From Dehalococcoidia bacterium (GTDB lineage: Bacteria > Chloroflexota > Dehalococcoidia > Bin125): a DNA stretch of 64,000 nucleotides. Below the pieces are notes generated by a model that was not told the DNA's origin, searched no databases, and saw only the letters and a list, made by a program, of their open reading frames with translations. The position numbers and the translations under genes were made by a program. Positions 4,049-40,722 of the stretch are shown here, in pieces (position 1 is the stretch's first letter; every line of letters begins with the position of its first letter). The stretch is taken from NCBI GenBank assembly GCA_022825265.1, contig JAJDXE010000004.1, positions 270,341 to 334,340 on the forward strand. Reading direction: 5' to 3'.

Positions 4049-4327
4049 TTAGTGATAGTCCACAAACCGTACGTCAACGATATCGCCCCCATCGAACTGA
4101 AAGATCAGCCTCCAATTGCCGCTGATCCGAATCGACCAGAATCCGGCCAACTCTCCCGACAGTTGGTGCAAGCGGTAGCCCGGTAGATCGAGATCCTGCG
4201 GCGCCCCTGCATCGTCCATGCGGTCCAGCACCACGCCCAGTCGCGGCAACAGATGAGGCGGCAGCCGGCGCCCATCGCCACGCAAGTGGAAGGCCTGCAG
4301 CCGGCGGTCTGCGAAATGGGTGATCAC
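4049..4327 (-). CDS. higB: HigB-type toxin (RelE/ParE superfamily plasmid-maintenance killer).
   Basis: 92 aa with a GTG start. The LHQLSGELAGFWSIRISGNWRLIFQFDGGDIVDVRFVDYH segment is typical of HigB. The toxin-upstream-of-antitoxin order is characteristic of higBA. Confidence 0.8.
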   Translation of the reverse strand: MITHFADRRLQAFHLRGDGRRLPPHLLPRLGVVLDRMDDAGAPQDLDLPGYRLHQLSGELAGFWSIRISGNWRLIFQFDGGDIVDVRFVDYH

Positions 4328-4387
4328 CGACGCAGACTAGCTCGGCCGCTAGACTGCCCGACGACACCGCATCGAACGGAGCCTCCT

Positions 4388-5641
4388 ATGCACCTGATGT
4401 ACTTCACCGAGCAGCCGATGTCGGCCTACGACGAGCACGCCGCCGAGGAGGGCGTGACCGCCCTGCTGTTCTCCAACTCCAACTTCGATCCCGTCGCCGG
4501 CTCGGAGCTCTACAACCATCGGCTGACCGAGTACAAGCTGGCCGAGGAAGTCGGCGTTGACGGGATCATGCTCAACGAGCACCACAACGCGCCTTTCTGC
4601 ATGCAGGCCAAGTGCAACATCTGGGCCTCGGTCCTCGCCGGCGCCACCGAGCGGGTCAAGATCGTCCTGCTCGGCAACCCCCTGCCGCTGGCCGACAACC
4701 CGATCCGCCTGGCCGAAGAGCTGGCCATGATCGACATGATCTCCGGCGGCCGGCTCGTCTCCGGCTTCGTCCGCGGCGGCGGCACCGAGCAGCTCGCCAC
4801 CGGCGTTAACCCGGCCTACAACCGCGAGCGCTTCGAAGAGGCCCACGACCTGATCGTCGAGGCCTGGACCCGTCCCGGCCCCTTCCGCTGGGAGGGCCGC
4901 CATTACCAGCACCGCGTCGTCAATCCCTGGGCCCTGCCGATGCAGCAGCCGCATCCGCGCATCTGGATTCCCGGTGTGCTCTCGCGCGAGACCGTGGTCT
5001 GGGCGGCCAAGCACCGCTACCCCTACATCGCGCTCAACACGACCATCGAGGCGACCAAGCGCATCTGGCAGACCTACGACGACGCAGCCCACGAGGTCGG
5101 CTATGACCCCGGTCCCGAGAACCGCGGCTACCTGCTCCGCGTCCACGTCGCCGACACCACCGAGAAGGCGATGGAGAACGCCTCGCAGTTCATGTGGATG
5201 CAGGGTGAGTTCACCGGCCTCGCGCACCCGGTCTGGTCAAACCCGGCCGGTTACGCCTCGCCCCGCAACCGCGAAGCGCTGGTCGAAGTCATGAACGGAC
5301 GCCGACCGCCGCCGCGCGCGCAGTCCTTCGACAACCAGATCGAGAACATGCAAATCATCGCCGGCACGCCCGACGAATGCATCCACAAGCTGCGCACCAT
5401 CCTCGAAGAGACGCGTCCCGGCATTCTCGCCCTCTGGGGCAACGACGGCCGCGTCACGCACGAGGACTCAATGCGCTGCATCGAGCTCCTCGGCACCGAG
5501 GTCATGCCCGCCCTCCGAGACATGGGGGCCGAGCTCGACCTTGACGGACCGTTCGACTCCGAGCCGCCGGTCAGCATCAACTACGACGAAGCCGCCAAAG
5601 CCCGCGTCGCAGCGGCGGCAGCCGCTGGTTCGGGCGACTAG
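4388..5641 (+). CDS. LLM-class (luciferase-like) flavin/F420-dependent oxidoreductase.
   Basis: Begins MHLMYFTEQPMSAYDEHAAEEG...NEHHN...GGRLVSGF..., a luciferase-like monooxygenase fold. The ATG at 4388 has a GGAG 7 nt upstream. The ORF-track N-terminal extension from 4253 is rejected. Confidence 0.8.
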   Translation: MHLMYFTEQPMSAYDEHAAEEGVTALLFSNSNFDPVAGSELYNHRLTEYKLAEEVGVDGIMLNEHHNAPFCMQAKCNIWASVLAGATERVKIVLLGNPLPLADNPIRLAEELAMIDMISGGRLVSGFVRGGGTEQLATGVNPAYNRERFEEAHDLIVEAWTRPGPFRWEGRHYQHRVVNPWALPMQQPHPRIWIPGVLSRETVVWAAKHRYPYIALNTTIEATKRIWQTYDDAAHEVGYDPGPENRGYLLRVHVADTTEKAMENASQFMWMQGEFTGLAHPVWSNPAGYASPRNREALVEVMNGRRPPPRAQSFDNQIENMQIIAGTPDECIHKLRTILEETRPGILALWGNDGRVTHEDSMRCIELLGTEVMPALRDMGAELDLDGPFDSEPPVSINYDEAAKARVAAAAAAGSGD

Positions 5642-5648
5642 CAACAAA

Positions 5649-5740
5649 GAGCTCCCCCTCTGGGGGAGCTGCCGCACCCATGTCCTCTCTCCCCCCGCGT
5701 AGCGGGGGGAGATGCCGAAGGCAGAGGGGGGTCCCCAGAA
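5649..5740. repeat. Intergenic palindromic repeat element of the CCCCCTCTGGGGG family, locus A.
   Basis: Sequence is gagctCCCCCTCTGGGGGagctg, then ctccccccgcgtagcggggggag, then gaggggggtcccc. The same family is seen at about 15468, 15894, 19730 and 40581. Confidence 0.7.
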
Positions 5741-5796
5741 GGAGCCAAGAACCAGAACCAACACGCGACCCAGCACGAGCCAAAGGACTCCTAGAA

Positions 5797-6570
5797 ATGG
5801 CAACCGTAGACATCCTCCTCCCCGGCTACTCGTTCGGCACCGACTCCGGCACGCCCGCCTTCTGCGCCGTGATCCTGGTTGAATCCGACGGCCGCCGCAT
5901 CCTCGTCGACACGGCCCACGTCGGCCGCCGCGTCCAGCTACAGGAACAGCTCGCCGCCCGCGGACTCGGCGTCTCCGACATCGACCTGGTCTTCATGACC
6001 CACGCCCACTGGGACCACGTCCAGAACTTCGACGCCTTCCCCGACGTGCCGATGGCGATCCACCCGCACGAGCGCAAGTACGCCTCCGAGCCCCATGTCA
6101 ACGACTGGGCCACCCCTCAGTGGACCGGCGCCGCCATCGAAACCCACCCGATGACCGAGGTCAACGACGGCGACGAACTGGCCAAGGGCGTCCGAGTGAT
6201 TCATCTGCCGGGGCACTCGCCGGGCAGTATTGGTCTGCTGGTCGAGACCGAAGCCGGCGTCGCCGGCCTGACCGGCGACGCGATGCACACCGCCGCCGTC
6301 GGCAAGGCCGGACGCAGCCCGCTCGTCTTCTACAGCGAGTCCCAGGCCAACGAGTCCATCGCCCGCGTGATGAGCGCCTCCGACCTGCTCTATCCCGGAC
6401 ACGACCGCCCATTCCGTATGGTCGACGGCGATCCGGAGTACATCGAGGAGTACAAGCTCACCCTCAGCGGAGTCCAGCCCGACATGGCCGGCCTCACGTT
6501 CGCCGATCCGCCGACCGAACTCGTCACCTGGGTCATGCCCGGCATCGAGGACCAGCCCACCTATCAGTAG
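5797..6570 (+). CDS. MBL-fold metallo-hydrolase (N-acyl-homoserine-lactonase-like).
   Basis: MATVDILLPGYSF...THAHWDHVQNF...HLPGHSPGS...GDAMH..YPGHD, giving metallo-beta-lactamase motifs HxHxDH, H and D. The start was chosen after the repeat element. Confidence 0.8.
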   Translation: MATVDILLPGYSFGTDSGTPAFCAVILVESDGRRILVDTAHVGRRVQLQEQLAARGLGVSDIDLVFMTHAHWDHVQNFDAFPDVPMAIHPHERKYASEPHVNDWATPQWTGAAIETHPMTEVNDGDELAKGVRVIHLPGHSPGSIGLLVETEAGVAGLTGDAMHTAAVGKAGRSPLVFYSESQANESIARVMSASDLLYPGHDRPFRMVDGDPEYIEEYKLTLSGVQPDMAGLTFADPPTELVTWVMPGIEDQPTYQ

Positions 6571-6571
6571 G

Positions 6572-7456
6572 TTGCGACTAGCACTCATCAACGGCCGCCG
6601 GGTCGCCTACGAAATCGGCGGCGACCCCAACGGCCGGCCCGTTCTGATCATCCACGGCGCCTGGGGCGGCCCATCCTCAACCCTGTGGAACGGCCCCAGG
6701 CTCCGCTGGCGGGTCCCCACCAACGGCCTCAAGCTGATCTACTACGATCGCCGCTGCGCCGGCCTCTCGCAGTACGACACCGAACCCTTCACCCTCGAGG
6801 ACCTCGCCAACGACGCCGTCGACGTCCTCGACTACCTGGACGTTGAACAGGCCGCAGCCATCGCCACATCCGCCGGCGGCCCAATCGGCCTGAGGCTCGC
6901 GCTCGACCATCCAGAACGCGTCGAAGCCCTGGTGCTGCTCAACACCGGAGCATCATTGATGTCGCTCACGCCGACCGGCATCGACCTTGACGACCCCTTC
7001 GTCGCGGACAGGCTTGCCACCGTAGCAAGGCGGCTCGCCCTCCTCAATCTGCTCGATCGCCGGGGCATCAACGCAGCCGTCGCCGCCTCAGAAGACGAGT
7101 GGCGGTCTCCGCCCCAGCCGGCGGAACCCGACCCGTCGCTGAAGACCTACCGACACAACCGCCAGGCAGCGGCGAAGAACCTGTCGGAGCCCGAACTCGC
7201 CCGCCTCGCGCACGGCGCGTTGCTCAACATGCGAGCGCAACGGGACGAAGACTTGAGCGACGAACTGTATCGAATTGGCTGCCCGGTCCTGATCGTCCAC
7301 GGCGACAGCGACACGACGGTGCCCCTGACCTTAGGCCAGGCATTGGCTTCCTCAACACCTGGCTCAGAAGTCACTATCCTTCGGGGAGTCGGCCACGGGC
7401 TGATCGTCGATCCGGCCGCGCAGGAGGTGGTCGTAACCTGGTTGAGACAGCGCTAA
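6572..7456 (+). CDS. Alpha/beta hydrolase.
   Basis: 294 aa with an alternative (TTG) start per the ORF track. Contains VLIIHGAWGG and a C-terminal HG. Confidence 0.65.
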   Translation: MRLALINGRRVAYEIGGDPNGRPVLIIHGAWGGPSSTLWNGPRLRWRVPTNGLKLIYYDRRCAGLSQYDTEPFTLEDLANDAVDVLDYLDVEQAAAIATSAGGPIGLRLALDHPERVEALVLLNTGASLMSLTPTGIDLDDPFVADRLATVARRLALLNLLDRRGINAAVAASEDEWRSPPQPAEPDPSLKTYRHNRQAAAKNLSEPELARLAHGALLNMRAQRDEDLSDELYRIGCPVLIVHGDSDTTVPLTLGQALASSTPGSEVTILRGVGHGLIVDPAAQEVVVTWLRQR

Positions 7457-7465
7457 GATGGTCGC

Positions 7466-7654
7466 ATGACGACCATTGAACCCAAGCGCAACGTACCTCC
7501 GGACCTGGACAAGCTCGCAGCAGAACAGGGTGTCAAGCCGATGACTGCGCAAGAATTCGCGCAGGCGCTACGCGATCTCTTCGAGGACGAGGAAGACAAA
7601 CAGAAGTTCCTGGAGAGGTTCGATCGCTTCTGGCCGAACGAGCCAGATGGCTGA
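7466..7654 (+). CDS. Small protein, putative antitoxin partner of the downstream PIN-domain protein.
   Basis: 62 aa, acidic C-terminus. Overlaps the downstream PIN gene by 8 nt, the usual translationally coupled TA arrangement. Confidence 0.5.
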   Translation: MTTIEPKRNVPPDLDKLAAEQGVKPMTAQEFAQALRDLFEDEEDKQKFLERFDRFWPNEPDG

Positions 7655-8102
7655 TTCCCTTCAGCGGGTCTCAGTCGACACGAATGTCGTTAGCTCCATC
7701 GTTCGGGACAATGCCTATAGCGCTCCCTATCTGCGCCTACTGCAGAGCTTCGCTCCAACGCTCACCTACTTTGTGCGAGGAGAACTCGCTGCCGCGAAGT
7801 GGAGTCAGCGCCGTCAAGAGCGATTCGATGCCCTACTCGCCGAGTACAGGTATCTTCCCGATCCCGATGAGCAGACAATCGACGCGTATGTCCAAGTGAG
7901 CGCAGCTGCTGTATCGCTCGGGTTTGAGGCCTCTCTGGGGTCTGACCTGTGGATACTGGCACAGACCCTTGCGCTAGGTCTTCCTTTCATGTCCCATGAC
8001 AGCAACGCGATTCGCACTGCTGAACGGGTAGGCATCGATTACCGGACATTGAACAGGCGCGCCCTTGACCGAATAGAACAGGATCGCGCTGCGCTCCGGT
8101 AA
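7647..8102 (+). CDS. PIN-domain protein (VapC-like toxin).
   Basis: 151 aa with an N-terminal VDTNVV. Acidic residues sit at about 11, 45, 100 and 118, matching PIN catalytic spacing. Confidence 0.6.
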   Translation: MADSLQRVSVDTNVVSSIVRDNAYSAPYLRLLQSFAPTLTYFVRGELAAAKWSQRRQERFDALLAEYRYLPDPDEQTIDAYVQVSAAAVSLGFEASLGSDLWILAQTLALGLPFMSHDSNAIRTAERVGIDYRTLNRRALDRIEQDRAALR

Positions 8103-8105
8103 GTC

Positions 8106-9359
8106 CTACAACTTGTCCAACACCTCGTCGGTGTGCTCGCCGAGCAGCGGCGGGCGACGGGTGATTGCCCAGCTTCCCTTCGTCAACTGATACGGCGCGC
8201 CGGGATAGATCACTTCTCGATCCAGCTCCGGATGCTCCACCCTGACCTGCATCCCGCGATCGACGAAGTGGGGATCCTCGAGCGCTTCCTCGGGGCTGTG
8301 GATCACACCGACCTGGAAGCCGAAGTTCTGGGCCTTGGTGAAGAACTCATAGGCCGTCAGTTTCGAGGCGAGCAGATCGAACGCCTCCCGACCGGCCCCG
8401 AAGATCGCCAGCAGCTCCTCGTTGTCGCCCCTGAACACGTCCGCCAGCGAGAAGCTTTCCAGCTCCGCTCCGACCAGCAGCAGCGCAGCCTCGGGCAACT
8501 GATCGAGCAGTCCCTCGTCCTCCAACCACTGGTAGCAGAGGCCGAACTCGGCCGGGCGACGCGGCGGGATGCCGGTGTTCACGTAGCGACCGTCGGCGCA
8601 CTTGATCTGCGAAGGCATCGATGGCGCGACGCCTGCGTGACGCCCGGTCTGGCGCTGCACGGTCGAGTGAGAGACCAGCCACGAATACGAGCCCGCCTCC
8701 GTTGTCACATTGACGGAGGCATTGATGTTGACGTTGATGTGCTGGCCGACGCCGGTCGCGTCGCGATGCAGCAGCGCCGTCAGGATTGACATGAACGCGT
8801 AGTTGGAACCCGTGTGATAGGCCTGCTGACCGCCGCCGCGGACTGGCGGCAGCGAGTGATCGTCGTAGCCGTTCATCCAGGCGAAACCGCCGTTGGCAGC
8901 GAGCGTCAGGTCGGTCTGCGGCTCGTCGTCGCGCACCGAGCCGAAGCCGAAGTTGGTGATCGTGCACCAGATCAGCCCCGGGTTGTCGGACATGATCTGG
9001 TGGTAATCGACTCCCAGGCGGCCGACCGGATCGTATGTATTGGTGTCGAAGATGATGTCCGCCGACCCGGCCAGCTTGAGGAACGCATCGGCGTTCGAGC
9101 GGTCGTCGAAGTCCATCACAATGCTGCGCTTCGACGTGTTGTAGTACCAGAAAAAGAGAGACCGTTCGTGGTGCGGCTCGTCGTCGGCAAACGGCTCGTA
9201 CTGTCGCGACGGGTCGCCTTCGGGCGGCTCGATCTTGATCACGTCGGCGCCCATGTCGGCCAGCAGTTTGCCGCACCAGGCGCCACGCTCGTCTCCGATC
9301 TCGAGCACGCGCAGGTCGTCGAGCGCCATCATCGCCAGGGGATTTGAGCTGGTTGTCAT
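8106..9359 (-). CDS. CoA-transferase family III (CaiB/BaiF) protein.
   Basis: 417 aa with LRVLEIGDERGAWCGKLLADMGADVIKIEPPEGDP, typical of family III CoA-transferases. Its start overlaps the stop of the next gene by 1 nt. Confidence 0.8.
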   Translation of the reverse strand: MTTSSNPLAMMALDDLRVLEIGDERGAWCGKLLADMGADVIKIEPPEGDPSRQYEPFADDEPHHERSLFFWYYNTSKRSIVMDFDDRSNADAFLKLAGSADIIFDTNTYDPVGRLGVDYHQIMSDNPGLIWCTITNFGFGSVRDDEPQTDLTLAANGGFAWMNGYDDHSLPPVRGGGQQAYHTGSNYAFMSILTALLHRDATGVGQHINVNINASVNVTTEAGSYSWLVSHSTVQRQTGRHAGVAPSMPSQIKCADGRYVNTGIPPRRPAEFGLCYQWLEDEGLLDQLPEAALLLVGAELESFSLADVFRGDNEELLAIFGAGREAFDLLASKLTAYEFFTKAQNFGFQVGVIHSPEEALEDPHFVDRGMQVRVEHPELDREVIYPGAPYQLTKGSWAITRRPPLLGEHTDEVLDKL

Positions 9360-10633
9360 TAGATCACGCCTTCTTCGTGCAGCCCGGCGATCTCGTCCTG
9401 GCTCAGGCCCAGCAGCTCGCCGTAGACGTAGTCGTTGTCCTCGCCCAGCGTCGCCGCGCCGCGAGTCATCGACCAGTCCGTCTTCGTGAAGTGGGCCGGA
9501 ATCCCGTCCACGCGCAAGCGGCCCATCTCCGCCTGCCGAATCGTCGGCCAGAGCCTTGCCTCGGATGAGTTGACGTCCTGGTCGATGCGTTGCTCGGGCG
9601 TCTGCACGGCGTTGGCCGGCACGCCGGCCTCACGCAGGATCTCGGCAGACTGGAATGGATCGCGGCGCAGGCACCATTCGGCGATCTGCGAATCCAGCTC
9701 GTCCTGCGCCGCCAATCGGCCGGAAAGCTGACCGTAGGCGTCGTTGGATGCCCAGTCGCAACCGTCGGCGGCCAGCACGTCGCGCATTTTGTGCCAGTCC
9801 TCGTCGTTGCGGCAGGCGATTGCGATCCAGGCCTCGTCGAACGAGCCCGGAACCGGTTTCGCCGCGTAGATGTTGTGCGGCGCCATCGCAGGAAACTGCG
9901 AGTGGTTGGCGTCGGGATATCCGTCGCGGCGCAGTGGGCGTCCATTGACGGTGTAGTCGAGCAGCACCGGACCGTTCAGCGTGAGCGCCGCCTCGGTGGC
10001 GGCCACGTCCACGTACTGACCCTCGCCCGTCCGGTTGCGGTGGTGAATCGCGAGCATGATCGCCATCGCCATGAAATACGCGCCGGTGTGATCCATGTAG
10101 GAGTATCCCCAGCCGGCCGGCGGCTGGTCTGGAATCGCCGACGACATCGTCAGTCCGCTGGTCGCCTGCACGATCGGTCCCCAGGTCTTGAACTTCTCGT
10201 ACGGCCCCGAGTGCCCGAAACCGCAGTTGGAGACGTAGATGATGTCTTCCCTGATCTGCTTGAGCGCGTCGTAGTCGTAGCCCCAGGAGCGCATCACGCC
10301 GGAGGAGAAGTTCTCGGTCACGCAGTCCGAGATCGCGACCAGCCGCTCGAACAGCTCGCGGCCCTTCTCGGTCTTGATGTTCAGCGAGATGCCCAGCTTG
10401 CCCACGTTGTGATTGTTGAACGGTCCGCCCAGTTCAGGGCCGCGCCGATCGTCCACATACGGAGGCATCCCGCGCAGGATGTCCCAGCGGCCGTGGTTGG
10501 ACGGATCCTCGATCCGGATCACCTCAGCGCCGAAGGCGGCCATGAACTTGGTCGCGCCTGCGCCGGCCAGTTGGCCGGTGAAGTCGCAAATCCGCAGGTG
10601 CGAGAGAGCCTTGCTCTTGACGTGATGGGGCAT
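9359..10633 (-). CDS. CoA-transferase family III (CaiB/BaiF) protein, tandem paralogue.
   Basis: 424 aa containing LRICDFTGQLAGAGATKFMAAFGAEVIRIEDP. Confidence 0.8.
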   Translation of the reverse strand: MPHHVKSKALSHLRICDFTGQLAGAGATKFMAAFGAEVIRIEDPSNHGRWDILRGMPPYVDDRRGPELGGPFNNHNVGKLGISLNIKTEKGRELFERLVAISDCVTENFSSGVMRSWGYDYDALKQIREDIIYVSNCGFGHSGPYEKFKTWGPIVQATSGLTMSSAIPDQPPAGWGYSYMDHTGAYFMAMAIMLAIHHRNRTGEGQYVDVAATEAALTLNGPVLLDYTVNGRPLRRDGYPDANHSQFPAMAPHNIYAAKPVPGSFDEAWIAIACRNDEDWHKMRDVLAADGCDWASNDAYGQLSGRLAAQDELDSQIAEWCLRRDPFQSAEILREAGVPANAVQTPEQRIDQDVNSSEARLWPTIRQAEMGRLRVDGIPAHFTKTDWSMTRGAATLGEDNDYVYGELLGLSQDEIAGLHEEGVI

Positions 10634-10716
10634 CGTGCTACTCCTCCAGCGGAAGTCTATATGGCAGGTATTCTGAGGCTCACGCCAAGCAATCAGACAA
10701 CTCGAGGAACATCATC

Positions 10717-11490
10717 ATGGCCAAAGTCGCATTCATCACCGGAGCCAGCCGAGGGATCGGCAAGCAGCTTGCCCAGGATTTCGCCATTGCCGGCTACGAC
10801 ATTGCCGCTGTCGCGCGGTCCACTGCGGACACGCCGACCAAGCTGCCGGGCACGGTCAACGAGACGGCCCAGCTCGTCGAGGAGGCCGGCCAGGAGTGCC
10901 TGCCGATCGGGGCGAACCTGGCCAAGGTCGAGGACCTCGACCGCGCGGTCGCGGCGACGTACGACCGCTTCGGCCAGATCGACGTGCTGATCAACAACGC
11001 CGCGATCGCGCCTCCCGGCAAGGCATTGGAGTCGGGCCGCAACCTCTGGAGCCTGGCCGTCGAGATCAACGTCAACGCGCCCTTCTACCTGACCCACGCG
11101 ATCGCCCCGAAGATGGCCGACGCCGACGGCGGCGCGGTGATCAACATCGGCTCGGGCGCGTCGGTCAGCCCCGACTTCGGCCGGGCCAGCTACACCACAA
11201 CCAAGCGAGCGCTCGAAGCGATGTCCGAGTCATTGGCCAGCGACCTCAAGGGAACCGGCGTCTCGGTCAACTGCCTGCGGTTGGAACTCTCGGTCTGGAG
11301 CGAGGGCTACGCCTTCACGCTCGGCGAGCAGGCCAAGCAGATGGACTTCGAAGACCCGATCATCATGTCCGACGCCTGCCTCTGGATGGTCGCCCAGGGC
11401 CCCGAGTGGACCGGCCGGATCGTCACCATCGCCGACCTGCGCAAGTACGGCGCCGTCCGCCCGAGGACTCGAAAGACCTTCGACGACTAG
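10717..11490 (+). CDS. SDR-family oxidoreductase.
   Basis: Has a TGASRGIG cofactor-binding motif and a YxxxK-type active site region. Confidence 0.8.
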   Translation: MAKVAFITGASRGIGKQLAQDFAIAGYDIAAVARSTADTPTKLPGTVNETAQLVEEAGQECLPIGANLAKVEDLDRAVAATYDRFGQIDVLINNAAIAPPGKALESGRNLWSLAVEINVNAPFYLTHAIAPKMADADGGAVINIGSGASVSPDFGRASYTTTKRALEAMSESLASDLKGTGVSVNCLRLELSVWSEGYAFTLGEQAKQMDFEDPIIMSDACLWMVAQGPEWTGRIVTIADLRKYGAVRPRTRKTFDD

Positions 11491-12908
11491 TCCGCCGCGT
11501 CTGCAGGATTGAGGTCACGCAGTTCTCGATGAGTCAGATTGCGTGTAGTGACGGCAAGCTCGTCGAGCTCAGGGGCGTCTTTGCCTTCCGTGCCACCACC
11601 GAGCTCCCGCATTCGACGCGCACCGACGAGCAAGTCGCCTTGCAGAGAGCCGACCCCGGTGTCGTAGGCCTTGGCCGTGCTTGAGATTGCGCGTCCCAAG
11701 CGGGCGTAGTGCTCGGCGTGTCGTCGAACCCCGTCATAGATCGTCTGGGCGTGCTGTTGAATCTCATTCGCCTTGTCATGAAAGCGTTCCTGTCGCAACG
11801 CCTCTGCCACTCCAGTCACCAAGGCGAGCATCGTGACCGGAGTCGCCAGCAACACGCGATGCTTTTCGAACGCCTCGGCGATCAAATCGGGACGGGCTCG
11901 GGTTGCCGCTTCGAGAATGCTGTCAGATGGAATCCACATAACGACCACGTCGAGGGCCTGGTCGATGTTCTCCGCATACTCCACGCGAGCCAGGTCGCGA
12001 GCGGTGTTCAAGACATTCGACGCATGACTCCTGAGCAGTTCCTGCTGTTGCGCTTCGTCAGTGGCGTCAAGCGCCGATCGATAGTCGTCAAAAGGGACCT
12101 TTGAATCGATCACAATCCTTCGTCCACCCGGCATGCGCACGACCACGTCTGCACGGCCCGACCCTTGATCGGTGTTGACCTGGGTCTGGTAATCGGTATC
12201 TGGTCGCATGCCTGCGAGCTGCAGGATGTTCTCCAGGGTTCTCTCGCCCCAATCACCGCGTAACTGACTTGAGCGCAGGATCTCTCGAAGGTCTCCAGTC
12301 TCAGAACTCAGTTGGCCGACTTGCTGCTGCGTGGCTTTGATGAGCGCGCTGACACCTTCGTACGCGCCCTCTCGCTGTTTCTCAAGGTCGGCAATCTGCT
12401 TCCGAAGCTCCGTCAGGCTCTCGCCGACCGGCTCGACTCGCTGTTTCAACTCCTGCTCGGCCAGTTCGCGCTGTCGCTTGAAGTCCTCGGCCGCCTGCTT
12501 GCGGAATTCCTCGTTGCTGGCTTTCGCGACATCGGCGGCGATGCTCTTGAACAGGGTGTCGATCTCCTGCTGCTTCTTGTTCAACTCCTCGATCCGCGCT
12601 TCCCGGTCCGACTCGACCTGTTTGAGTTCTTCGCGAGCCTCGCCCAGGCTGTCGCGCAGAGTAGAAGCGCGACCCCGCTCCGCCTCCAGATCGTGCGCAG
12701 CCTGCTGCAGTTGCGATGACCGCTCCTCCAACCGCGCGCTCGCCTCTGTTCGCTCCCGTTCGGCGTCTTGCAGCACTCCGCGAACTTGATCCAATTCCAT
12801 GCGCAGGTCCGCCGATTCAGCGCGCAAACCCGACGCCTCTCGCCTCACGAACCAGGCCGCTGCCGCGCCAACCGCTAACCCGACGATCAAGCCAATGACA
12901 ATTTCCAT
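11487..12908 (-). CDS. rmuC: DNA recombination protein RmuC.
   Basis: 473 aa with an N-terminal TM helix, a long coiled coil and a conserved C-terminal RmuC domain (RADVVVRMPGGRRIVIDSKVP...). Confidence 0.75.
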   Translation of the reverse strand: MEIVIGLIVGLAVGAAAAWFVRREASGLRAESADLRMELDQVRGVLQDAERERTEASARLEERSSQLQQAAHDLEAERGRASTLRDSLGEAREELKQVESDREARIEELNKKQQEIDTLFKSIAADVAKASNEEFRKQAAEDFKRQRELAEQELKQRVEPVGESLTELRKQIADLEKQREGAYEGVSALIKATQQQVGQLSSETGDLREILRSSQLRGDWGERTLENILQLAGMRPDTDYQTQVNTDQGSGRADVVVRMPGGRRIVIDSKVPFDDYRSALDATDEAQQQELLRSHASNVLNTARDLARVEYAENIDQALDVVVMWIPSDSILEAATRARPDLIAEAFEKHRVLLATPVTMLALVTGVAEALRQERFHDKANEIQQHAQTIYDGVRRHAEHYARLGRAISSTAKAYDTGVGSLQGDLLVGARRMRELGGGTEGKDAPELDELAVTTRNLTHRELRDLNPADAAD

Positions 12909-12956
12909 CGAGTCCTCCCGACTGCCGCTTCCGGGCGACCGTCTCGATGCTATCTA

Positions 12957-13769
12957 ATGGACGTAACGGCAGAGACGAAGATCGGAAGCGGCATGCCCTG
13001 GTTTCTCGTTCACGTGCTCTGGCTCGCGATTCTTGCCGGCGCGGCCTGCGCGACATTTGGATGCAGCTCGGGAGACTCGATCAGCGGCGAGGTCCGATTC
13101 CACCGAGAGGTCGACCTGCCCGACGGCGCCACCGTGACGGTCAAGCTGCTCGATACATCGCTGGCCGACGCGTCCGCGGTCGAGCTTGGCGCGGTAGTGA
13201 TTGAAGACGCCAAGAGCCTGCCCGTCGCCTTCAGCATCGAATACGACCCTGACGAGGTCGACAGTCGCGCCGAAATCACACTCCAGGCCAGGGTCGAAGT
13301 TGGCGACGACCTGCTCTACATCAACGACACCGTCCACCCCGTGCTGACCCGCGGCAATCCGCGTAACAGCGACGTTCAGGTGATCTCGGTGAGCGAGTCC
13401 GACCAGTGCGTCGAGCCGCTGCCGGGCCAGATTCACTCCAGCTTCTGGGAAGGCGACCTGCCCGATGATGCGGTCCTCGAAGTCCGGCTCTGGGACGTTT
13501 CCGAGCCAGGGGAGCGCTTCGTCGTGGTCGAGGCCAGCTTCGACAATCTCGGATCGTTCCCGATCGACTTCGAGCTACCGCACGAGGGCGTGGAGATCAG
13601 CCGTCATCATCGTTACGAACTCCAGGCCGACATCTGGTTCGACGGTGAGCTGCAATTCCATATCCCAAACCCCGAGTGGCGACGCACCATCCTGCCCTAC
13701 TGCCCCGACGGCGACGACCTGATGATCGTCAACGACGTCTTCCCAGTTTCCGAGTTCCCGGCTGAATAG
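12957..13769 (+). CDS. YbaY-like lipoprotein with duplicated domain.
   Basis: Signal/lipobox-like N-terminus (LAILAGAACATFGCSSG). Two repeats of the pattern VxLLDxSLADA...PVxFxIEYDP. The real start is possibly the internal Met at about 12993. Confidence 0.55.
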   Translation: MDVTAETKIGSGMPWFLVHVLWLAILAGAACATFGCSSGDSISGEVRFHREVDLPDGATVTVKLLDTSLADASAVELGAVVIEDAKSLPVAFSIEYDPDEVDSRAEITLQARVEVGDDLLYINDTVHPVLTRGNPRNSDVQVISVSESDQCVEPLPGQIHSSFWEGDLPDDAVLEVRLWDVSEPGERFVVVEASFDNLGSFPIDFELPHEGVEISRHHRYELQADIWFDGELQFHIPNPEWRRTILPYCPDGDDLMIVNDVFPVSEFPAE

Positions 13770-13870
13770 TCCGGGGATCGCCTCTATCCGAGTGCAATAA
13801 TGTTCCCGAATCCGCACCAGAATATGGGCGCTCGGTAGGTGCCCGCTGCGAATGATCGAGGGAGACGACG

Positions 13871-15460
13871 ATGGAAGTCCCGCTGCTAGTCAACGATTTT
13901 CTGCGCCGCGCATCGAAGCTCTACGGACCCTCCGAAGCCGTCATCGACGGCGACCGTCGCTTCACCTGGGCCGAGTTCAACGCCCGCGTCAACCAGCAGG
14001 CCCACGCCCTGCTCGACGCCGGCATCGGCAAAGGTGACCGGGTCGGCATCATCGCTCCCAACTCACACCAGTTCCTCGAGACGTTCTACGCCACGGCCGC
14101 GATCGGCGCGGTTGTGGTGCCGATGAACTACCGCCTGATCCCGGCCGACTTCGAGTACATGCTCGAACACTCCGGCTCGAAGGTCGTCCTGGTCGACGCC
14201 GAATTCACCCACCTCGTCGACGAGATTCGCGGCAACGTCAACACCGTCGAGCACTTCATCGCCATTCCCTACGGCGACGCGCCGATCAATCCCGGCTGGA
14301 CCAACTACGAGGACTGGATTACCGATCAGGCGACATCGCAGCCGCCCGACCCGGGCCTGAACGAGACCGACCTGCTCTCGATCAACTACACCTCGGGCAC
14401 CACGGCGCGGCCCAAGGGCGTGATGATCACGCACCGCAACGCCTACATCAACGCCTACAACTTCATCGCCCACCTGCGTATCTCGCAGGACGACGCCGAG
14501 ATGTGGACGCTGCCCATGTTCCACGCCAACGGCTGGGGTGGCCCCTATGCGATCACCGCGATGGGCGGCAAGCACGTCGTCCTTAGAGCGCCCGAGGCAG
14601 CCGACATCTACCAGGTGATCCAGGACGAGAACTGCACCTTCGCCTGCATGGCTCCGGCGGTTCTGGCGCGCATCCTCGAGTTCGAGCGCAAGGACGATTA
14701 CAACATCACGGTCCGCCCGCGATTCACCGTCGCCGGCGCGCCGCCACCGCAGGCCTTCATCGAGCGCCTGGAGAAGGAGATCGGCTGGGAGTTCATCCAG
14801 ATTTACGGGCTCACCGAGACCTCGCCGATCCTCACCGTCTCCGAGGTCAAGCCCTACCTCGGCGTCGACGATGACGGCTACTTCGGCACCAAGGTCCGCG
14901 CGGGACACGACGTGATCGGCGTCGAGGTCAAGGTCGTCCGAGACTCCGGCAAGGAAGTCGCCTGGGACGACGAGGAGGTCGGCGAAGTCGTCGCCCGCTC
15001 CAACGTCGTCCTGCGCGGTTACTGGCAGCAGCAAGAAGAGACCGACAAGGTCATCGTCGACGGCTGGTTCCACACCGGCGACATGGCGACGGTCAACCAG
15101 GACGGTTACATCAACATCGTCGACCGGGCCAAGGACGTGATCATCTCAGGAGGAGAGAACATCTCCAGCATCGAGGTCGAGGACGTGCTCTACGACCACC
15201 CGGCGGTGCTCGAAGCGGCGGTCATCGGAGTGCCTTCGGAGCAGTGGGGCGAGACGCCGCTCGCCCTGATCGTGCCTCGGGAGGGGCATGATGTCACGAG
15301 GGATGACATCGTGGCCCACTGCCGAGCGACGATGGCAGGCTTCAAGATCCCGCGTCGGGTGGAGTTCGTGGAGACACTGCCTCGCACGGCGACGGGCAAG
15401 CTCAAGAAGTTCGAGCTCCGTGAGGCCTACTGGGAAGGCGTCGAAAAGCGGGTCAACTGA
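13871..15460 (+). CDS. AMP-dependent acyl-CoA synthetase/ligase (FadD-like).
   Basis: Contains YTSGTTARPKGV (AMP-binding motif I) and a C-terminal GKLKK. Confidence 0.85.
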   Translation: MEVPLLVNDFLRRASKLYGPSEAVIDGDRRFTWAEFNARVNQQAHALLDAGIGKGDRVGIIAPNSHQFLETFYATAAIGAVVVPMNYRLIPADFEYMLEHSGSKVVLVDAEFTHLVDEIRGNVNTVEHFIAIPYGDAPINPGWTNYEDWITDQATSQPPDPGLNETDLLSINYTSGTTARPKGVMITHRNAYINAYNFIAHLRISQDDAEMWTLPMFHANGWGGPYAITAMGGKHVVLRAPEAADIYQVIQDENCTFACMAPAVLARILEFERKDDYNITVRPRFTVAGAPPPQAFIERLEKEIGWEFIQIYGLTETSPILTVSEVKPYLGVDDDGYFGTKVRAGHDVIGVEVKVVRDSGKEVAWDDEEVGEVVARSNVVLRGYWQQQEETDKVIVDGWFHTGDMATVNQDGYINIVDRAKDVIISGGENISSIEVEDVLYDHPAVLEAAVIGVPSEQWGETPLALIVPREGHDVTRDDIVAHCRATMAGFKIPRRVEFVETLPRTATGKLKKFELREAYWEGVEKRVN

Positions 15461-15467
15461 CTCCCGA

Positions 15468-15512
15468 GACCTCCCCCTCTGGGGGAGGTGCCCCGAAGGG
15501 GCGGAGGGGGCC
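15468..15512. repeat. Left inverted-repeat arm of the CCCCCTCTGGGGG-family element flanking the DUF559 gene.
   Basis: Sequence gacctCCCCCTCTGGGGGaggtgccccgaaggggcggagggggcc. It is an imperfect reverse complement of the arm at 15894-15938. Confidence 0.7.
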
Positions 15513-15528
15513 CGCCGAGGCACCGACG

Positions 15529-15888
15529 ATGGCACATCGCGAATACGAGTACGCGCCTCTTGAGCAGATCGACTTTGCAAGAACGCTACGCGCGAACGCC
15601 ACCGACGCTGAGATTTTGCTCTGGAGCAGGCTCCGCCGAAAGCAGGTAGGCGGCCATCGGTTCCGGCGACAGCACCCGATAGGCGGATACGTGGCTGATT
15701 TCACCTGCGTCTCGGAACGCCTGGTCATCGAACTCGATGGTGGGCAGCACTCAGAGCGCAGGCGCCGCGACGAAGCTCGTACCCAAGACCTAGAAGCGAT
15801 GGGATATCGCGTGCTCCGATTCTGGAACGACGATGTCTTCAATGATCTTGACAACGTCGTCGAGCGAATCGCGGCCGAGTTGACGTAG
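15529..15888 (+). CDS. DUF559 domain endonuclease (Vsr-like / very-short-patch-repair-like fold).
   Basis: 119 aa: ...ILLWSRLRRKQVGGHRFRRQHPIGGYVADFTCVSERLVIELDGGQHSE...DLEAMGYRVLRFWNDDV, a DUF559 signature. Confidence 0.8.
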   Translation: MAHREYEYAPLEQIDFARTLRANATDAEILLWSRLRRKQVGGHRFRRQHPIGGYVADFTCVSERLVIELDGGQHSERRRRDEARTQDLEAMGYRVLRFWNDDVFNDLDNVVERIAAELT

Positions 15889-15893
15889 CGGGC

Positions 15894-15938
15894 GGCCCCC
15901 TCAGTCGCTTCGCGACAGCTCCCCCAGAGGGGGAGCTC
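15894..15938. repeat. Right inverted-repeat arm of the DUF559-carrying element.
   Basis: Sequence ggccccctcagtcgcttcgcgacagctcCCCCAGAGGGGGagctc. Its reverse complement aligns to the left arm. Confidence 0.7.
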
Positions 15939-16103
15939 CTGACGTTCGGAATTTTAGTCGCCGAGTGCCAGAATCTCGATCACGGTGCACGTGACGCGAG
16001 ATTCTGCTCGTCCGTGTTGAGCCTCCGCATCCATCACACTGCACGCGCCTTCATCTCACGGCGCGGCGAACCGCGGCCCTTGAGCACCTATCTGGCGACG
16101 CGC

Positions 16104-16910
16104 TCAGGTGTTGCGGCGACGCCCGAGGCGGTCGAAGAAGCTATTGTCGAGTTGCAGCACTCTGCCCAGATCGTCGTCAATCACCAGTCCCAGCCCGTAG
16201 TCCCGAAGCAAGTCGACCAATTCCTCGCCGTCCACCAGCTCAATAGGCTTCGCGCCACCGCGCCGGTCCGCCTCTTCGCGGGCGGCCGCCGTGAACGTCC
16301 CCGTTGTGATCAACAGTCCTTGTCCCGTTCGCCCGTCGAGGACGCCCCGAAAGTCCCGCACCTCCGAGGGTCCGACCGACCTCTGGTACCGCTTGCATTG
16401 GAAATAGACGGGGAACGACTTGCGCAGAATTCGATGCTGGCCAACGCCGTCGATTCCCTGATCGCCCGACCCGCCGAGGACCCTGACTTCGGTCAGCCCA
16501 GCCGATTGCAGCAGCTTGGCGGCTAGGTATTCAAACTGCATCGGGTCAAGCTGTTGCAGGCGCGCTAGAAGCTGGCCTTGCCAATCAGTGAGCGCGACGG
16601 CCAACGATGCTGCGGTCGCGCGATCTTGGTGAACCGGAGGCGGGAAGCCATCCAATGCGCGCAGTTGGCGCTCGAGCTCGGTTTGGCGATCTTGAGATTT
16701 GTGCAGGAGGCCCTCTACCGACTCATACCATCCTCTGTCTGAACGACGACGAGACTTACTGTCTAACTCTCGCTTGGCGAGTACTCGTTCGTACATCTCC
16801 TGATTCGCCTGCTCAGACTTGATCTTCTTCTCTAGCCTGTCGCGTTCGGCGCGTTCGTTCGCTTGTTGCCAGGCGGTCTTTAGTCGATTGAAGGTGTTGC
16901 CCAGTCCCAC
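16104..16910 (-). CDS. Mrr-like restriction endonuclease (Mrr_cat domain) with N-terminal coiled coil.
   Basis: Segment FEYLAAKLLQSAGLTEVRVLGGSGDQGIDGV...YFQCKRYQRSVGPSEVRDFRGVL...GLLITTGTFTAAAREEA matches the Mrr catalytic core. GC is lower than in neighbouring genes. Confidence 0.7.
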   Translation of the reverse strand: MGLGNTFNRLKTAWQQANERAERDRLEKKIKSEQANQEMYERVLAKRELDSKSRRRSDRGWYESVEGLLHKSQDRQTELERQLRALDGFPPPVHQDRATAASLAVALTDWQGQLLARLQQLDPMQFEYLAAKLLQSAGLTEVRVLGGSGDQGIDGVGQHRILRKSFPVYFQCKRYQRSVGPSEVRDFRGVLDGRTGQGLLITTGTFTAAAREEADRRGGAKPIELVDGEELVDLLRDYGLGLVIDDDLGRVLQLDNSFFDRLGRRRNT

Positions 16911-16931
16911 GCAGCTTTACCTTACGCTTCC

Positions 16932-17861
16932 CTACCCCAGACACCCGCTCAAGAAGTTATTGATCCGGTTCGTCGCGTCCATCCCAGCCGGTGTCGGGAA
17001 CCCATCAAACCCGTGCGGCGCGTCCGGGAAGACGTGCAGCTCAGTCTCGTGACCCGCCGCCTGCCACCGAGCAGCCATGAACAGCGAATCATCCAGCAGT
17101 GGATCCAATGTCCCCACCGTGAAGATCGCCGGTGGCATTCCCGACAGATCAGCCAGCAGCGGTGTCACGTCCGGCAGGTCGCGCAGCTCCGGCTCCTCCG
17201 GTGTGACGTAGTGGTCGATGAACCACTCCATGATTGGCGAGGAGAGAATCAGGTTGCGCTCACCCCACAGACGGGCCGACGGCGAATGTCGCAGGTCGAA
17301 GACGCCATAGGTCAGCGCCGCGCCCTTGAAACCGGTGTAGCCGTGGTTGTCCCGCATCCGCAGCAAGGTCGTGGCCGAGAGATGACCGCCGGCAGATTCT
17401 CCGCCGATCGTGAACGCGTCCGTGCCGAATTCCGACTGGCCGTTCTCGACCAGCCAGACCGCTGCCGCTTCGCAGTCCTCGTTGGGACCGGGATACGGAT
17501 GCTCGGGCGAGAGCCGGTAACCGACTGACACCACCGCCTGTTGCGTTGTCTGGGCACGCTCCCAGAGCCGCTCATCCTGGCCGTCGTGCGTACCGATCAC
17601 CCAGCCGCCGCCGTGGATGTGCAGGTACACGCCGCGCACGACCGGCGGGATGAACACTCGGATCGGAACGTCACCGGCCGGACCCGGTACCGTCCGTTCC
17701 TGGGCGATGTCGTCCAGCTTGGGCGGCGGCGGACCGAACGGACCACCCTCGGCCAGCACGTCGCGCAACTCCTGCGCCTCCATCTCGTGCCAGGGCTTGC
17801 CCTGCACCGAGGCCTCCTCGATCATCACGTTCAGCGCCTGCGTCTGCGGATCGGCTTTCAT
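16932..17861 (-). CDS. Alpha/beta-hydrolase esterase/lipase (HSL family).
   Basis: Contains HGGGW and GESAGG motifs. Confidence 0.8.
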   Translation of the reverse strand: MKADPQTQALNVMIEEASVQGKPWHEMEAQELRDVLAEGGPFGPPPPKLDDIAQERTVPGPAGDVPIRVFIPPVVRGVYLHIHGGGWVIGTHDGQDERLWERAQTTQQAVVSVGYRLSPEHPYPGPNEDCEAAAVWLVENGQSEFGTDAFTIGGESAGGHLSATTLLRMRDNHGYTGFKGAALTYGVFDLRHSPSARLWGERNLILSSPIMEWFIDHYVTPEEPELRDLPDVTPLLADLSGMPPAIFTVGTLDPLLDDSLFMAARWQAAGHETELHVFPDAPHGFDGFPTPAGMDATNRINNFLSGCLG

Positions 17862-17966
17862 GTCGCGTTCCTAACTGAAATAGACGTGCTATATTGGCGC
17901 AGCGCAGGCTAACCTGAGTCCGCCCGCACAACCAGTCGGAGTATAGGAAGTAGTGAGGAACTGACG

Positions 17967-18437
17967 ATGGCTCTTGAGGGACCCGCCCTGCCCGCATTCG
18001 AAACCGCCTGCGATTCGATCGAACGCATCCTCGCCGCCGCTGACGGACTCTCCTCCGAGCAGCTCGACACCGCCCCTTGGGACGATGCCTCCACGATGTT
18101 CGTCCTCGCCACGCACGCCATCTCCGCGACCGAGTGGAACTTCGTCGAAGTGCTGGCCGGTGCGCAGCTCGATCGCAGCCGCCAGGCCGAGTTCGACTCG
18201 CGCGCCGCGTCCTTCGACGACCCCGAGCGTGTGCTCGTCGACGCCTGGGCCGGCGCGAAGGCCGCTATCGAATCGGCGCTCGCCGGACTCTCGGCCGACG
18301 CCTGGGACGGCCCGCACTACCACATGTTCATGGACAGAAATCTCAGTGGACACGAGCTCGTCGTCCGCGCGCTCTCGCACACCGCCGAACACGTCGGCCA
18401 CGCCGAGATGACCCGTCAGTGGTTGGACGCGCAATGA
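17967..18437 (+). CDS. DinB-family (DinB_2) protein.
   Basis: 156 aa with a C-terminal His cluster (HTAEHVGHAEM). Confidence 0.6.
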   Translation: MALEGPALPAFETACDSIERILAAADGLSSEQLDTAPWDDASTMFVLATHAISATEWNFVEVLAGAQLDRSRQAEFDSRAASFDDPERVLVDAWAGAKAAIESALAGLSADAWDGPHYHMFMDRNLSGHELVVRALSHTAEHVGHAEMTRQWLDAQ

Positions 18438-18792
18438 ACCGGTCGGCGTCTCCCTCCGCGGGCGAACGGAATCGAACAACCCCGAACGCTCGCGGACCTG
18501 GGGCCCGCCGAAAAAACCTGAAAAAACCTGAAAGTCCCAAATGCGCGATCCCCAGCAAAACACTGGAGATCGTGTCCGTTTTTCGCGGAATTCGGTCCAG
18601 AAAAAAAGTTCACCGAAAACCTGAAAGTCGCCGATGGTCGAACGCTCGGAGCGAAACCAATCCGGTCCCCGACTTGATCGGGGACCCGCTCGGCCCTCCG
18701 CCCAACGTCGGAACGCCTAGCGCTTATCCTGTCCGCGTTGCGCCGTGCAGCGCATCGAAGCCGAACACCACACACCGCACGAGGAGTGAACC

Positions 18793-19729: not shown

Positions 19730-19784
19730 GCTTCCCCCCTCTGGGGGGGAAGCTGTCCCGTAGGGACTGAAGGGGGGTCCCCGC
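19730..19784. repeat. CCCCCTCTGGGGG-family palindromic element, locus D, between the two esterase paralogues.
   Basis: Sequence gcttCCCCCCTCTGGGGGGGaagc, then gtcccgtagggac, then gaaggggggtcccc. Confidence 0.7.
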
Positions 19785-40580: not shown

Positions 40581-40722
40581 GAAGACCTCCCCCTCTGGGG
40601 GAGGTGCCCCGGAGGGGCGGAGGGGGCCTCTCTGCGAGCTGCGGACGTTAACGAATCTGACAGTGGGAGCCGAGCCCCCTCAGTCGCTTCGCGACAGCTC
40701 CCCCAAAAGGGGGAGGTCTTGC
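40581..40722. repeat. Complete but empty MITE-like copy of the CCCCCTCTGGGGG-family element: both inverted-repeat arms around a 44-bp core.
   Basis: Left arm is gacctCCCCCTCTGGGGGaggtgccccggaggggcggagggggcc. Right arm is gccccctcagtcgcttcgcgacagctcCCCCAAAAGGGGGaggtc. These match the arms flanking the DUF559 gene at 15468 and 15894 nearly base for base. Confidence 0.7.

Follow-up and report, generated by a model that had tools for sequence, protein, structure and literature searches.

What kind of sequence are the palindrome-rich segments at positions 5649-5736 (locus C) and 19730-19782 (locus D) of the 64-kb stretch of DNA analysed here (the window), and what makes such elements come and go? 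A preliminary description had ascribed the same three-part layout to both, with a first palindrome, a second, locus-specific palindrome and a shared tail, and had called them REP-like structured elements rather than simple terminators. All the strings that it quoted were found: gagctCCCCCTCTGGGGGagctg (5649-5671), ctccccccgcgtagcggggggag (5689-5711) and gaggggggtcccc (5724-5736) at locus C, and gcttCCCCCCTCTGGGGGGGaagc (19730-19753), gtcccgtagggac (19755-19767) and tgaaggggggtcccc (19768-19782) at locus D. The common layout applied to locus D but not to locus C, which turned out to be composite.

Units at loci C and D and elsewhere in the window

Locus D is a lone R-like unit between tandem esterase genes. 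On the plus strand, it consists of a first hairpin, H1 (GCTTCCCCCC-tct(g)-GGGGGGAAGC, 19730..19753), a mini-hairpin, H2 (GTCCC-gta-GGGAC, 19755..19767), and a tail (TGAAGGGGGG(TCCCC), 19768..19782). Locus C comprises an orphan H1 hairpin (gagctCCCCC-tct-GGGGGagctg, 5649..5671, plus strand), which has R-type arms and no tail of its own, followed, after a spacer of 17 nt, by one complete unit (5689-5736). The latter is also on the plus strand and is formed by an H1 made of the pyrimidine arm CTCCCCCCGC, a gta loop and the purine arm GCGGGGGGAG (5689..5711), an H2 mini-hairpin with a GNA triloop (tGCC-gaa-GGCa, 5713..5723) and the tail GAGGGGGG(TCCCC) (5724..5736). Thus, the 'second palindrome' of locus C, previously taken as the counterpart of that of locus D, is in fact a C-arm/G-arm hairpin of the H1 class, while the real H2 of this locus had been missed.

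Six full units are present in the window, all of them intergenic. Each is made of an H1 of the form xxCTCCCCC-tct-GGGGGAGxx, an H2 hairpin of 3-10 bp, usually with a GNA triloop, and a tail reading (G/T)GAGGGGG; the termini read AAGA(G/C)CTCCCCC...GGGGGAG(G/C)TCTT. Two types can be distinguished, L (..CCTCCCCC..GGGGGAGGTG-H2-(C)GGAGGGGG) and R (..GCTCCCCC..GGGGGAGCTG-H2-CTGAGGGGG). Element A has an L-type unit at its left end (15466..15513, plus strand; H1 15468-15489, H2 15490-15502, tail 15503-15512) and an inverted R-type unit at its right end (15893..15940, minus strand; tail 15894-15903, H2 15904-15916, H1 15917-15937). Doublet B (40582-40720, about 139 bp) is an inward-facing pair without an ORF, which folds as one long hairpin and contains an L-type unit (40582..40629, plus strand) and an inverted R-type unit (40672..40720, minus strand). 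Its spacer aligned weakly with the interior of element A (best block 14/20).

The motif CCCCCTCTGGGGG, searched with at most one mismatch, gave 5 matches in the window (at 5654, 15473, 15921 on the minus strand, 19735 and 40589) versus 0.12 expected from shuffles. A strict detector of C-arm/G-arm hairpins (pyrimidine 5' arm with at least 5 C, perfect stem of at least 6, loop of 3-8) returned seven hairpins in 64 kb, every one of them at the four family loci. The window has 63% G+C, and runs of G5 or C5 are common in it, but their paired arrangement is not. We also built the covariance model for which the preliminary description had called. This model (R1), made from 38 units with C and D left out, recovered both at E ~6e-8, with 35.0 bits for D (E 6e-8) and 35.0 bits for C (E 6.5e-8). 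The four ends of A and B scored 57-72 bits (67 and 72 for the left and right ends of A, 68 and 57 for the L- and R-type units of B). The best unrelated match in the window reached 10.6 bits (E 0.34), and the matches above 16.5 bits beyond the units were just partial or opposite-strand matches at the same loci. The C5/G5 core of H1 was invariant in 38/38 aligned units. The excess of motif matches and the recovery of C and D by R1 thus confirm the proposal that a dispersed, structured, REP-like repeat family is present, and C and D are copies of it.

Pairing, mirror symmetry and relation to BoxC

That the stems change while the pairing persists, as had been proposed from the window alone, was borne out for H2. 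In an alignment of units (A1), all 5 H2 pairs were changed on both sides, with a covariation of 0.315 versus 0.082 in shuffled alignments (0/500). Because A1 had been selected with a filter on H2 pairing, which makes its percentage paired true by construction, the test was repeated on unfiltered arm-to-tail linkers, which are 13-25 nt long and contain H2. A perfect stem of at least 5 was found in 82 of 125 distinct linkers, versus 12 after shuffling. This pattern of substitution indicates that H2 is under selection to pair. Its loops read GAA, GGA, GCA or GTA in 58/96 cases; GNA triloops closed by a C-G pair form exceptionally stable DNA mini-hairpins.

The shared tail had been described correctly for both loci, but it is more than a tag, since it mirrors the purine arm of H1 and co-varies with it. 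It is the reverse, and not the reverse complement, of this arm, the canonical pair being GGGGGAG and GAGGGGG. Locus C keeps the rule exactly with its own unusual arm (arm GGGGGGAG, tail GAGGGGGG). At locus D, the arm GGGGGGAAG corresponds to the tail GAAGGGGGG or, in a longer reading, GGGGGGAAGC to TGAAGGGGGG, with the triplet code G·G-C, A·A-T, T·C-G. Other arm/tail mirror pairs were GGGGGAGG with GG(A/T)GGGGG, GGGAGAGG with GG(A/T)GAGGG, GGGGGAAG with G(A/T)(A/T)GGGGG, GGGAGAAG with GATGAGGG and GGGGAGAG with GTGAGGGG. In a sample of 659 hairpins, corresponding to 1318 strand instances, there were 484 mirror matches (371 mirror-only) versus 191 direct matches (78 direct-only), while random re-pairing of arms and tails gave 158 mirror matches (maximum 186). 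The 8th arm base also followed the base before the tail in the three-part family (G with G in 54/56, C with T in 75/78), though this covariation mostly reflects two conserved lineages, L and R, and thus few independent events.

A mirror repeat is meaningless for Watson-Crick pairing and for the symmetry of duplex binding. A purine-motif triplex that folds back antiparallel (G·G-C, A·A-T, T·A-T) does require one. The tail of clostridial units, GAGAGGG, is one mismatch away from the mirror, which counts against this reading. Folding as single-stranded DNA, with DNA parameters and Watson-Crick pairs only, gave -30.6 kcal/mol (z -4.4) for C, -19.7 kcal/mol (z -3.8) for D and -46.5 kcal/mol (z -5.8) for doublet B. 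We infer from the mirror rule that the units would fold as triplexes in vivo. Another structure that we considered is a switch in which H1 competes with a G-quadruplex built from the G tracts of purine arm and tail. The units of relatives that lack H2 do fit canonical G-quadruplex patterns (GGGGGAGGGctaGGGTGGGGG, GGGAGAGGGttaGGGTGAGGG), but those of the window have just two long G runs plus GG pairs. Furthermore, the interruptions of the tail would not need to mirror those of the arm in a quadruplex, yet mirror-only matches far outnumber direct-only ones, and the CD and NMR data on the E. coli motif discussed below were interpreted as a triplex (PMC4666352). We consider such a switch very improbable, and rank it below the triplex because of the mirror rule.

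These features recall a motif noticed in E. coli in the 1990s under the name BoxC, renamed PIT elements in 2000 and then TM, for G/C-rich class II intrastrand triplex motif (Holder et al. 2015, PMC4666352). Its E. coli form, TMECO, has the consensus CCCTCNCCC-N3-6-GGGNGAGGG-N3-GGGNGAGGG. It is present in 23 copies in MG1655, all intergenic, and more than 260 genomes carry TM, whose loci are unusually rearranged between strains (PMC4666352). In vitro, CD and NMR showed TMECO to fold as a class II intrastrand triplex, while DMS footprinting in E. coli gave no stable triplex signal in vivo (PMC4666352). A pyrimidine arm, a short loop and a complementary purine arm are found in H1 of all our units, the third segment mirrors the purine arm (G·G-C, A/T·A-T) in the mirror-only excess reported above, and the units are multi-copy, intergenic (6 in the window) and variable between close strains (loci L201-L205, L250 and L251, see below). 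The second loop, by contrast, is 13-25 nt long here, versus 3 nt in TMECO and 1-6 nt in the ITxF search used to collect TM (PMC4666352). For this reason, the window units are classed as a variant and not as canonical TM; with the loop range allowed by ITxF, units with H2 in loop 2 would escape detection. These comparisons show that C and D belong to a BoxC/PIT/TM-type family, of which they represent a new hairpin-in-loop variant.

Distribution and turnover of the units

A scan for the 17-mer CTCCCCCTCTGGGGGAG, with one genome per species, gave at least 120 loci. Among the matches listed, the three-part unit was found in Dehalococcoidia, other Chloroflexota, Caulobacter, Brevundimonas, Phenylobacterium and Sphingomonadales, as well as in Oscillospiraceae and other Clostridia (with the tail GAGAGGG), Acidimicrobiia and Planctomycetota (Phycisphaerales). 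Over the 714 kb of other genomes that these same matches cover, R1 detected 183 copies. They often formed L/R pairs of alternating orientation, some facing inward and some outward, like E. coli BIMEs (arrangements were read from the covariance-model table; a heuristic that orients units by their tail mislabels closely abutting pairs). The R-type unit of element A was identical over 41/41 nt to a unit of Caulobacter vibrioides (L014) and over 45/45 nt to one of a Dehalococcoidia MAG (L109), and 43 IMG/VR contigs carried the unit. A blastn search of plasmids with a 48-nt unit found none, for which the low-complexity filter may be responsible. The family is therefore abundant in relatives and in other phyla, contrary to the possibility raised in the preliminary description that the motif might be confined to the four loci of the window and absent from relatives.

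We compared the window with syntenic loci of other Chloroflexota (L201-L205, L250, L251). Exact-sequence searches with its DUF559 and LLM proteins had no match, and these loci were reached by way of homologues. The esterase upstream of D has homologues on MAG chromosomes that are 97% down to 77% identical, and the site next to it was strikingly variable. It was empty in L250 (87%; 47 nt) and L251 (79%; 40 nt), and contained unrelated palindromes in L204. The R-like solo unit of the window was replaced in L202 by a different solo unit with an L-type H1 and a GTCGC H2, in L201 by an inward doublet of the H2-less TM form and in L203 by two tandem H2-less units. At the C site of L205, where the flanking LLM protein is 98% identical, only AAGAGCTCCCCC was left (also read as AAGAGCTCCCCCCTCAGAAGG). 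The C site of the window is longer by about 75 nt, and this difference is bounded by a direct repeat, CTCCCCC (5652-5658) and the TCCCC of the tail, suggesting that a deletion at microhomology took place and left a footprint. The H2 and tail of locus C were also present at site 3 of L202. Three more insertion polymorphisms were found, two involving doublets, one a solo unit, and one of the three lying in a divergent promoter region; neither a target-site duplication nor a clean insertion boundary was seen at these three, the flanks of which have diverged. These comparisons show that units are gained, lost and replaced between close relatives.

This turnover bears on the idea that the units act in RNA as 3'-end stem-loops, by which the upstream transcript would be terminated or stabilised, and that they are conserved for this role and spread only incidentally. 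Their position agrees with it, as the 4/4 plus-oriented units of the window begin 8-22 nt past a plus-strand stop codon, the sites in relatives are mostly between tandem or convergent genes, and strong hairpins are predicted (z -3.8 to -4.5, DNA parameters). On the other hand, close relatives have no unit, or another one, at orthologous sites, which implies that the neighbouring genes do not depend on the units, and one doublet lies in a divergent promoter region. A Watson-Crick RNA fold would make no use of the mirror-repeat tail, and PIT elements had neither promoter nor terminator activity in E. coli (PMC4666352). The units lack a T/U run and no sense-strand terminator was called at any of them, in agreement with the preliminary view that they are not simple terminators; the sole call at a unit was on the antisense strand of locus C, and an intrinsic terminator was rejected as their identity. 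A known Rfam RNA was likewise rejected, as no covariance model matched any unit, either at the gathering threshold over the whole window or at E <= 1 over positions 5500-20000. Taken together, this makes an RNA-level role quite unlikely as the explanation of the units.

The DUF559 gene, a possible mechanism and likeness to known systems

The inverted units of element A enclose a gene (15529..15888, plus strand) for a DUF559/Vsr-like PD-(D/E)XK nuclease of 119 aa. The protein matched Pfam PF04480 (E 4e-41, profile positions 4-108 of 109) and PDB 3HRL (E 6e-26), with IELDGGQH aligned to VEADGGQH and a conserved ELDG..H core. It also matched the PADLOC family HEase (homing endonuclease), although a PADLOC defence system was considered as its identity and rejected, and PDB 3R3P ('Mobile intron protein'; E 6e-4). 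We take 3R3P to be the catalytic domain of a homing endonuclease, I-Bth0305I. NCBIfam PRK09767 (YcjD) gave 96 bits for a cut-off of 218 bits, so that the protein is a relative of YcjD and not its equivalog. The gene is flanked by 50-nt inverted ends, 82% complementary to each other, and is compactly packed, with about 16 nt between one tail and its start codon and about 5 nt between its stop codon and the other tail. The preliminary description had suggested a correlation with a RAYT-like or DUF559 protein. No HUH Y1 (RAYT) gene flanked by inverted units and no known transposase domain were found in the window, where terminal inverted repeats (TIRs) are present at element A and the flanked gene is DUF559 (PF04480).

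The correlation with DUF559 extended well beyond the window. We analysed 80 unrelated metagenomic DUF559 loci, the proteins of which are 47-64% identical to that of the window. C-arm/G-arm hairpins amounted to 3.2 per kb within 300 nt of the DUF559 gene versus 0.16 per kb elsewhere in the same loci, a 20-fold enrichment. When both flanks were available, at least one hairpin was present in 64 of 71 loci and one on each side in 36; the 7 loci of 71 from which such a hairpin was absent count against the link with the nuclease. Upstream hairpins mostly had the G tail on their 3' side, while downstream ones were mostly inverted. The sequence of the arms varied from one DUF559 locus to another, but the two flanking hairpins had identical arms in 17 of 39 loci, versus 5% of random pairs (permutation 0/5000). 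In the opposite direction, among the listed matches of the 17-mer, only 2 of 120 unit-bearing 8-kb blocks contained a DUF559 gene. This is expected if most units are non-autonomous, and leaves dependence on the nuclease unproven.

Further evidence came from E. coli K-12, in which the DUF559 gene ycjD has a degenerate CCCTCTCCC..GAGGGGG over its 3' end and a 42-nt duplicate of this 3' end. A full BoxC lies about 170 nt downstream of ycjD, in the ycjD-fabI spacer, while the chance of finding one in a 1-kb neighbourhood is about 0.5% (23 copies in 4.64 Mb). The orientation of this BoxC is opposite to that of most downstream units in the metagenomic loci, which counts against the link. Of 5426 complete E. 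coli genomes, 3346 had the whole ycjD-BoxC segment, and the rest matched only its fabI-proximal 134 nt; in one strain without the full segment, a different gene set abutted the fragment CCAACCTCCCCCTTGCAGG. Taken as a whole, the super-family is thus strongly associated with DUF559 genes, both statistically and in its architecture, and the DUF559 nuclease is a candidate for the partner enzyme of the units. In the literature on DUF559 (PF04480), we found no link of this domain to repeats, and the association appears to be unreported in the literature that could be searched.

The A site itself provides information on the behaviour of the cassette. The arrangement that follows the AMP-binding gene was L(+)-DUF559-R(-) in the window, L201 and L204, whereas L202 had R(+)...R(-) around a DUF559 gene on the opposite strand. 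In L205, HigB/HigA and another ORF replaced the left unit and DUF559, the R unit being kept, and L203 was rearranged. The DUF559 proteins at this site were 71%, 72% and 49% identical to that of the window, versus 89-96% for the flanking proteins, which means that the cassette is exchanged or evolves far faster than its surroundings.

We weighed these observations against the possibility that the units are moved by another enzyme (RAYT, IS200/IS605 TnpA or a DDE transposase), or by host recombination or replication slippage, DUF559 being trapped cargo. The HigB/HigA cassette that occupies the position of DUF559 in L205 next to a retained right unit suggests that the units may simply be recombination hot spots that trap cargo and, like the lack of clean junctions, speaks for this alternative. 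Also in its favour, a Mrr-type restriction gene lies beside element A in the window only, most units are far from DUF559 genes, and the pairs, inward- and outward-facing and of alternating types, resemble E. coli BIMEs. It accounts poorly, however, for the 20-fold enrichment at 80 DUF559 loci with arms matched on the two sides, and for the compactness of element A. Moreover, the units lack the GTAG/CGTC tags of RAYT-type REPs, and transposase or integrase remnants were never found around TMECO sites in E. coli (Holder et al., PMC4666352), in a paper from the text of which the word 'endonuclease' is absent. On balance, we regard it as rather unlikely that the units are moved by other means and DUF559 is trapped cargo.

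Our preferred reading, which we hold to be probable, is that C and D are solo repeats of the BoxC/PIT/TM class with a fast turnover and that DUF559 is their putative partner nuclease. When the strand is unpaired or extruded, CTCCCCC and GGGGGAG would form a hairpin on which the GAGGGGG tail is laid back by reverse-Hoogsteen pairing. Loop 2, of 3 nt in E. coli BoxC, has grown here into the very stable GNA-triloop hairpin H2, which would keep the third strand in place. The units are non-autonomous and turn over quickly by gain, microhomology deletion and replacement, and the intergenic sites at which this happens mostly lie immediately 3' of a stop codon. By analogy with REP/RAYT and with homing endonucleases of the same fold, the DUF559 nuclease may cut at or near folded units, and recombinational repair from other copies could then lead to the spread, homogenisation and rearrangement of units. 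Nuclease-driven copying is what this analogy would predict; we know of no PD-(D/E)XK nuclease that transposes DNA by itself, which counts against it. More tentatively, DUF559 (YcjD-type) nucleases could be the missing partners of BoxC/PIT/TM elements in general and form with them a second, RAYT-independent REP-like system spanning several phyla, in which structure-recognising cutting would drive copying, homogenisation and local instability.

We know of no function, mode of spread or associated enzyme for BoxC, and DUF559 is, to our knowledge, a very common domain without a function, the E. coli member of which, YcjD, is uncharacterised. Their pairing makes both questions testable in E. coli, through the genetics of ycjD and the biochemistry of YcjD on BoxC oligonucleotides. 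The partner-enzyme reading, if true, would also assign a function to a protein domain that ranks among the most widespread of those still uncharacterised. A link with a nuclease may also explain the rearrangement hot spots at unit loci. The pairing would add, beside REP/RAYT, a non-B-DNA, nuclease-linked class of bacterial repeats. As for the hairpin-in-loop variant, its existence means that triplex searches with limited loops overlook part of the family.

The closest known relative of the units is BoxC/PIT/TM, with which they share the order pyrimidine arm, short loop, purine arm, loop and G/(A,T)-rich mirror. Both are multi-copy, strictly intergenic, very conserved and found in many phyla at rearranged loci, and an H2-less form (CCCTCTCCC..GGGAGAGGGttaGGGTGAGGG) occurs at the D site of L201 and L203. 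They differ by the covarying GNA-triloop hairpin that fills loop 2 of the window units, by the arms (CTCCCCC/GGGGGAG here, CCCTCNCCC in TMECO), by the existence here of two unit types (L, R) paired in alternating orientation and by the DUF559 gene between unit pairs, whereas no mobility function was found near the motifs according to PMC4666352.

Like REP, BIME and REPIN sequences, the units are short extragenic palindromes that occur as singlets, inverted doublets and alternating clusters, with two unit types. As in REP/RAYT systems, inverted units of the same kind enclose an enzyme gene and most copies are non-autonomous. Classical REPs are defined by a GTAG/CGTC tetranucleotide tag (PMC3733652). 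These tags are absent from our units, GTAG being found only inside some H2 loops, and a RAYT-type REP was rejected as their identity. The enzyme is also different, a PD-(D/E)XK Vsr-like nuclease here and an HUH Y1 transposase there, and the mirror-repeat tail of the window units has no REP counterpart. Compared with MITEs and TIR transposons, element A has similar imperfect terminal inverted repeats of about 50 nt and insertion polymorphisms are observed, doublet B (about 139 bp) representing an ORF-less version. No target-site duplication was seen at the three polymorphisms with their diverged flanks, no DDE or other known transposase is present, and single units occur too.

On the enzyme side, the window protein is free-standing (119 aa), without an intron, an intein or an extra DNA-binding domain, which sets it apart from I-Bth0305I-type homing endonucleases, and its activity is predicted. 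It has in common with these enzymes and with Vsr the catalytic fold, as indicated by the match to 3R3P and by the grouping of DUF559 with Vsr in Pfam, and it shares with the homing endonucleases a homing-like turnover of its cassette, the protein being only 49-72% identical within flanks that are 89-96% identical.

Genes at the site of the DUF559 element

The element formed by inverted L- and R-type repeat units around a DUF559 nuclease gene (window 15466-15940) is directly adjoined by a gene for a methyl-directed (type IV) restriction enzyme of the Mrr type, on the minus strand (window 16104-16910). This gene is missing at the equivalent position in four Chloroflexota relatives (loci L201, L202, L204 and L205), in which the interval from the AMP-binding gene to the esterase gene is intact; in L203 this interval is rearranged. 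Because of its absence from these four loci, the Mrr-type gene is taken to be a strain-specific insertion beside the repeat. In L205 (19622-20740), from a relative with a 4.97-Mb genome, the left unit and the DUF559 gene are replaced by a HigB/HigA toxin-antitoxin pair and a 102-aa ORF, and the inverted R unit (about 20695-20740) is kept.

Paralogue arrays and other features of the window

The region 39260-44820 of the window contains tandem paralogue arrays. Two LLM paralogues lie at 39260-40561 and 40788-42038; a second duplicated pair of genes is found at about 42829-43788 and 43843-44820. Doublet B, an L/R pair of units without an ORF, lies exactly between the two LLM paralogues, just as solo D, a single unit, lies between two esterase paralogues. 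Another LLM oxidoreductase is encoded at 4253-5641, where the longest ORF comprises 462 aa. Its 5' end is probably over-extended; the homologues, of 411-417 aa, span 86-90% of this ORF.

The window also contains a second intergenic repeat of about 93 nt, relatively A+T-rich and unrelated to the BoxC/PIT/TM-type units. It reads AATTTTTTTCTGAGG...GAAAAAGA..CGATCTCCAGTGTTTTACGGGAGATCG, encloses the palindrome GATCTCC..GGAGATC, and matched none of the Rfam families at their gathering thresholds. Tandem copies (33632-33724 and 33821-33913) precede the 1029-aa ORF at 34027, and an inverted partial copy (18546-18584) is found 5' of the esterase gene at 18793. A further palindromic repeat family, in which CATACCCGCGC..GCGCGGGTATC is paired with GAGATTGCCGC..GCGCGGCAATGAC, is present in this Chloroflexota clade; it fills the position corresponding to solo D in L204 (10927-11115) and occupies the spacer of convergent genes in another relative (L250, 4229-4400).

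A 23S rRNA gene (55425-58416) is followed by a tRNA gene (58549-58620). Neither a 5S rRNA gene beyond this point nor a 16S rRNA gene within the preceding 55 kb was detected, which suggests that the rRNA genes are not linked.

DUF559 genes in other genomes

On one metagenomic contig (L173), two DUF559 genes lie 2.2 kb from each other (2047-2301 and 4292-4546), and the gene is therefore not always single-copy. In E. coli MG1655 (NC_000913.3; locus L249, 7200-7430, minus strand), the DUF559 gene ycjD is followed on its 3' side by a 42-nt imperfect duplicate of its own 3' end, then by GGGTTAGGGGC and by a complete BoxC. Among 5426 complete E. coli genomes, about 2080 lack the ycjD-BoxC segment or have other sequence in its place. 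The arrangement downstream of ycjD has the appearance of a scar left by an older DUF559 cassette.
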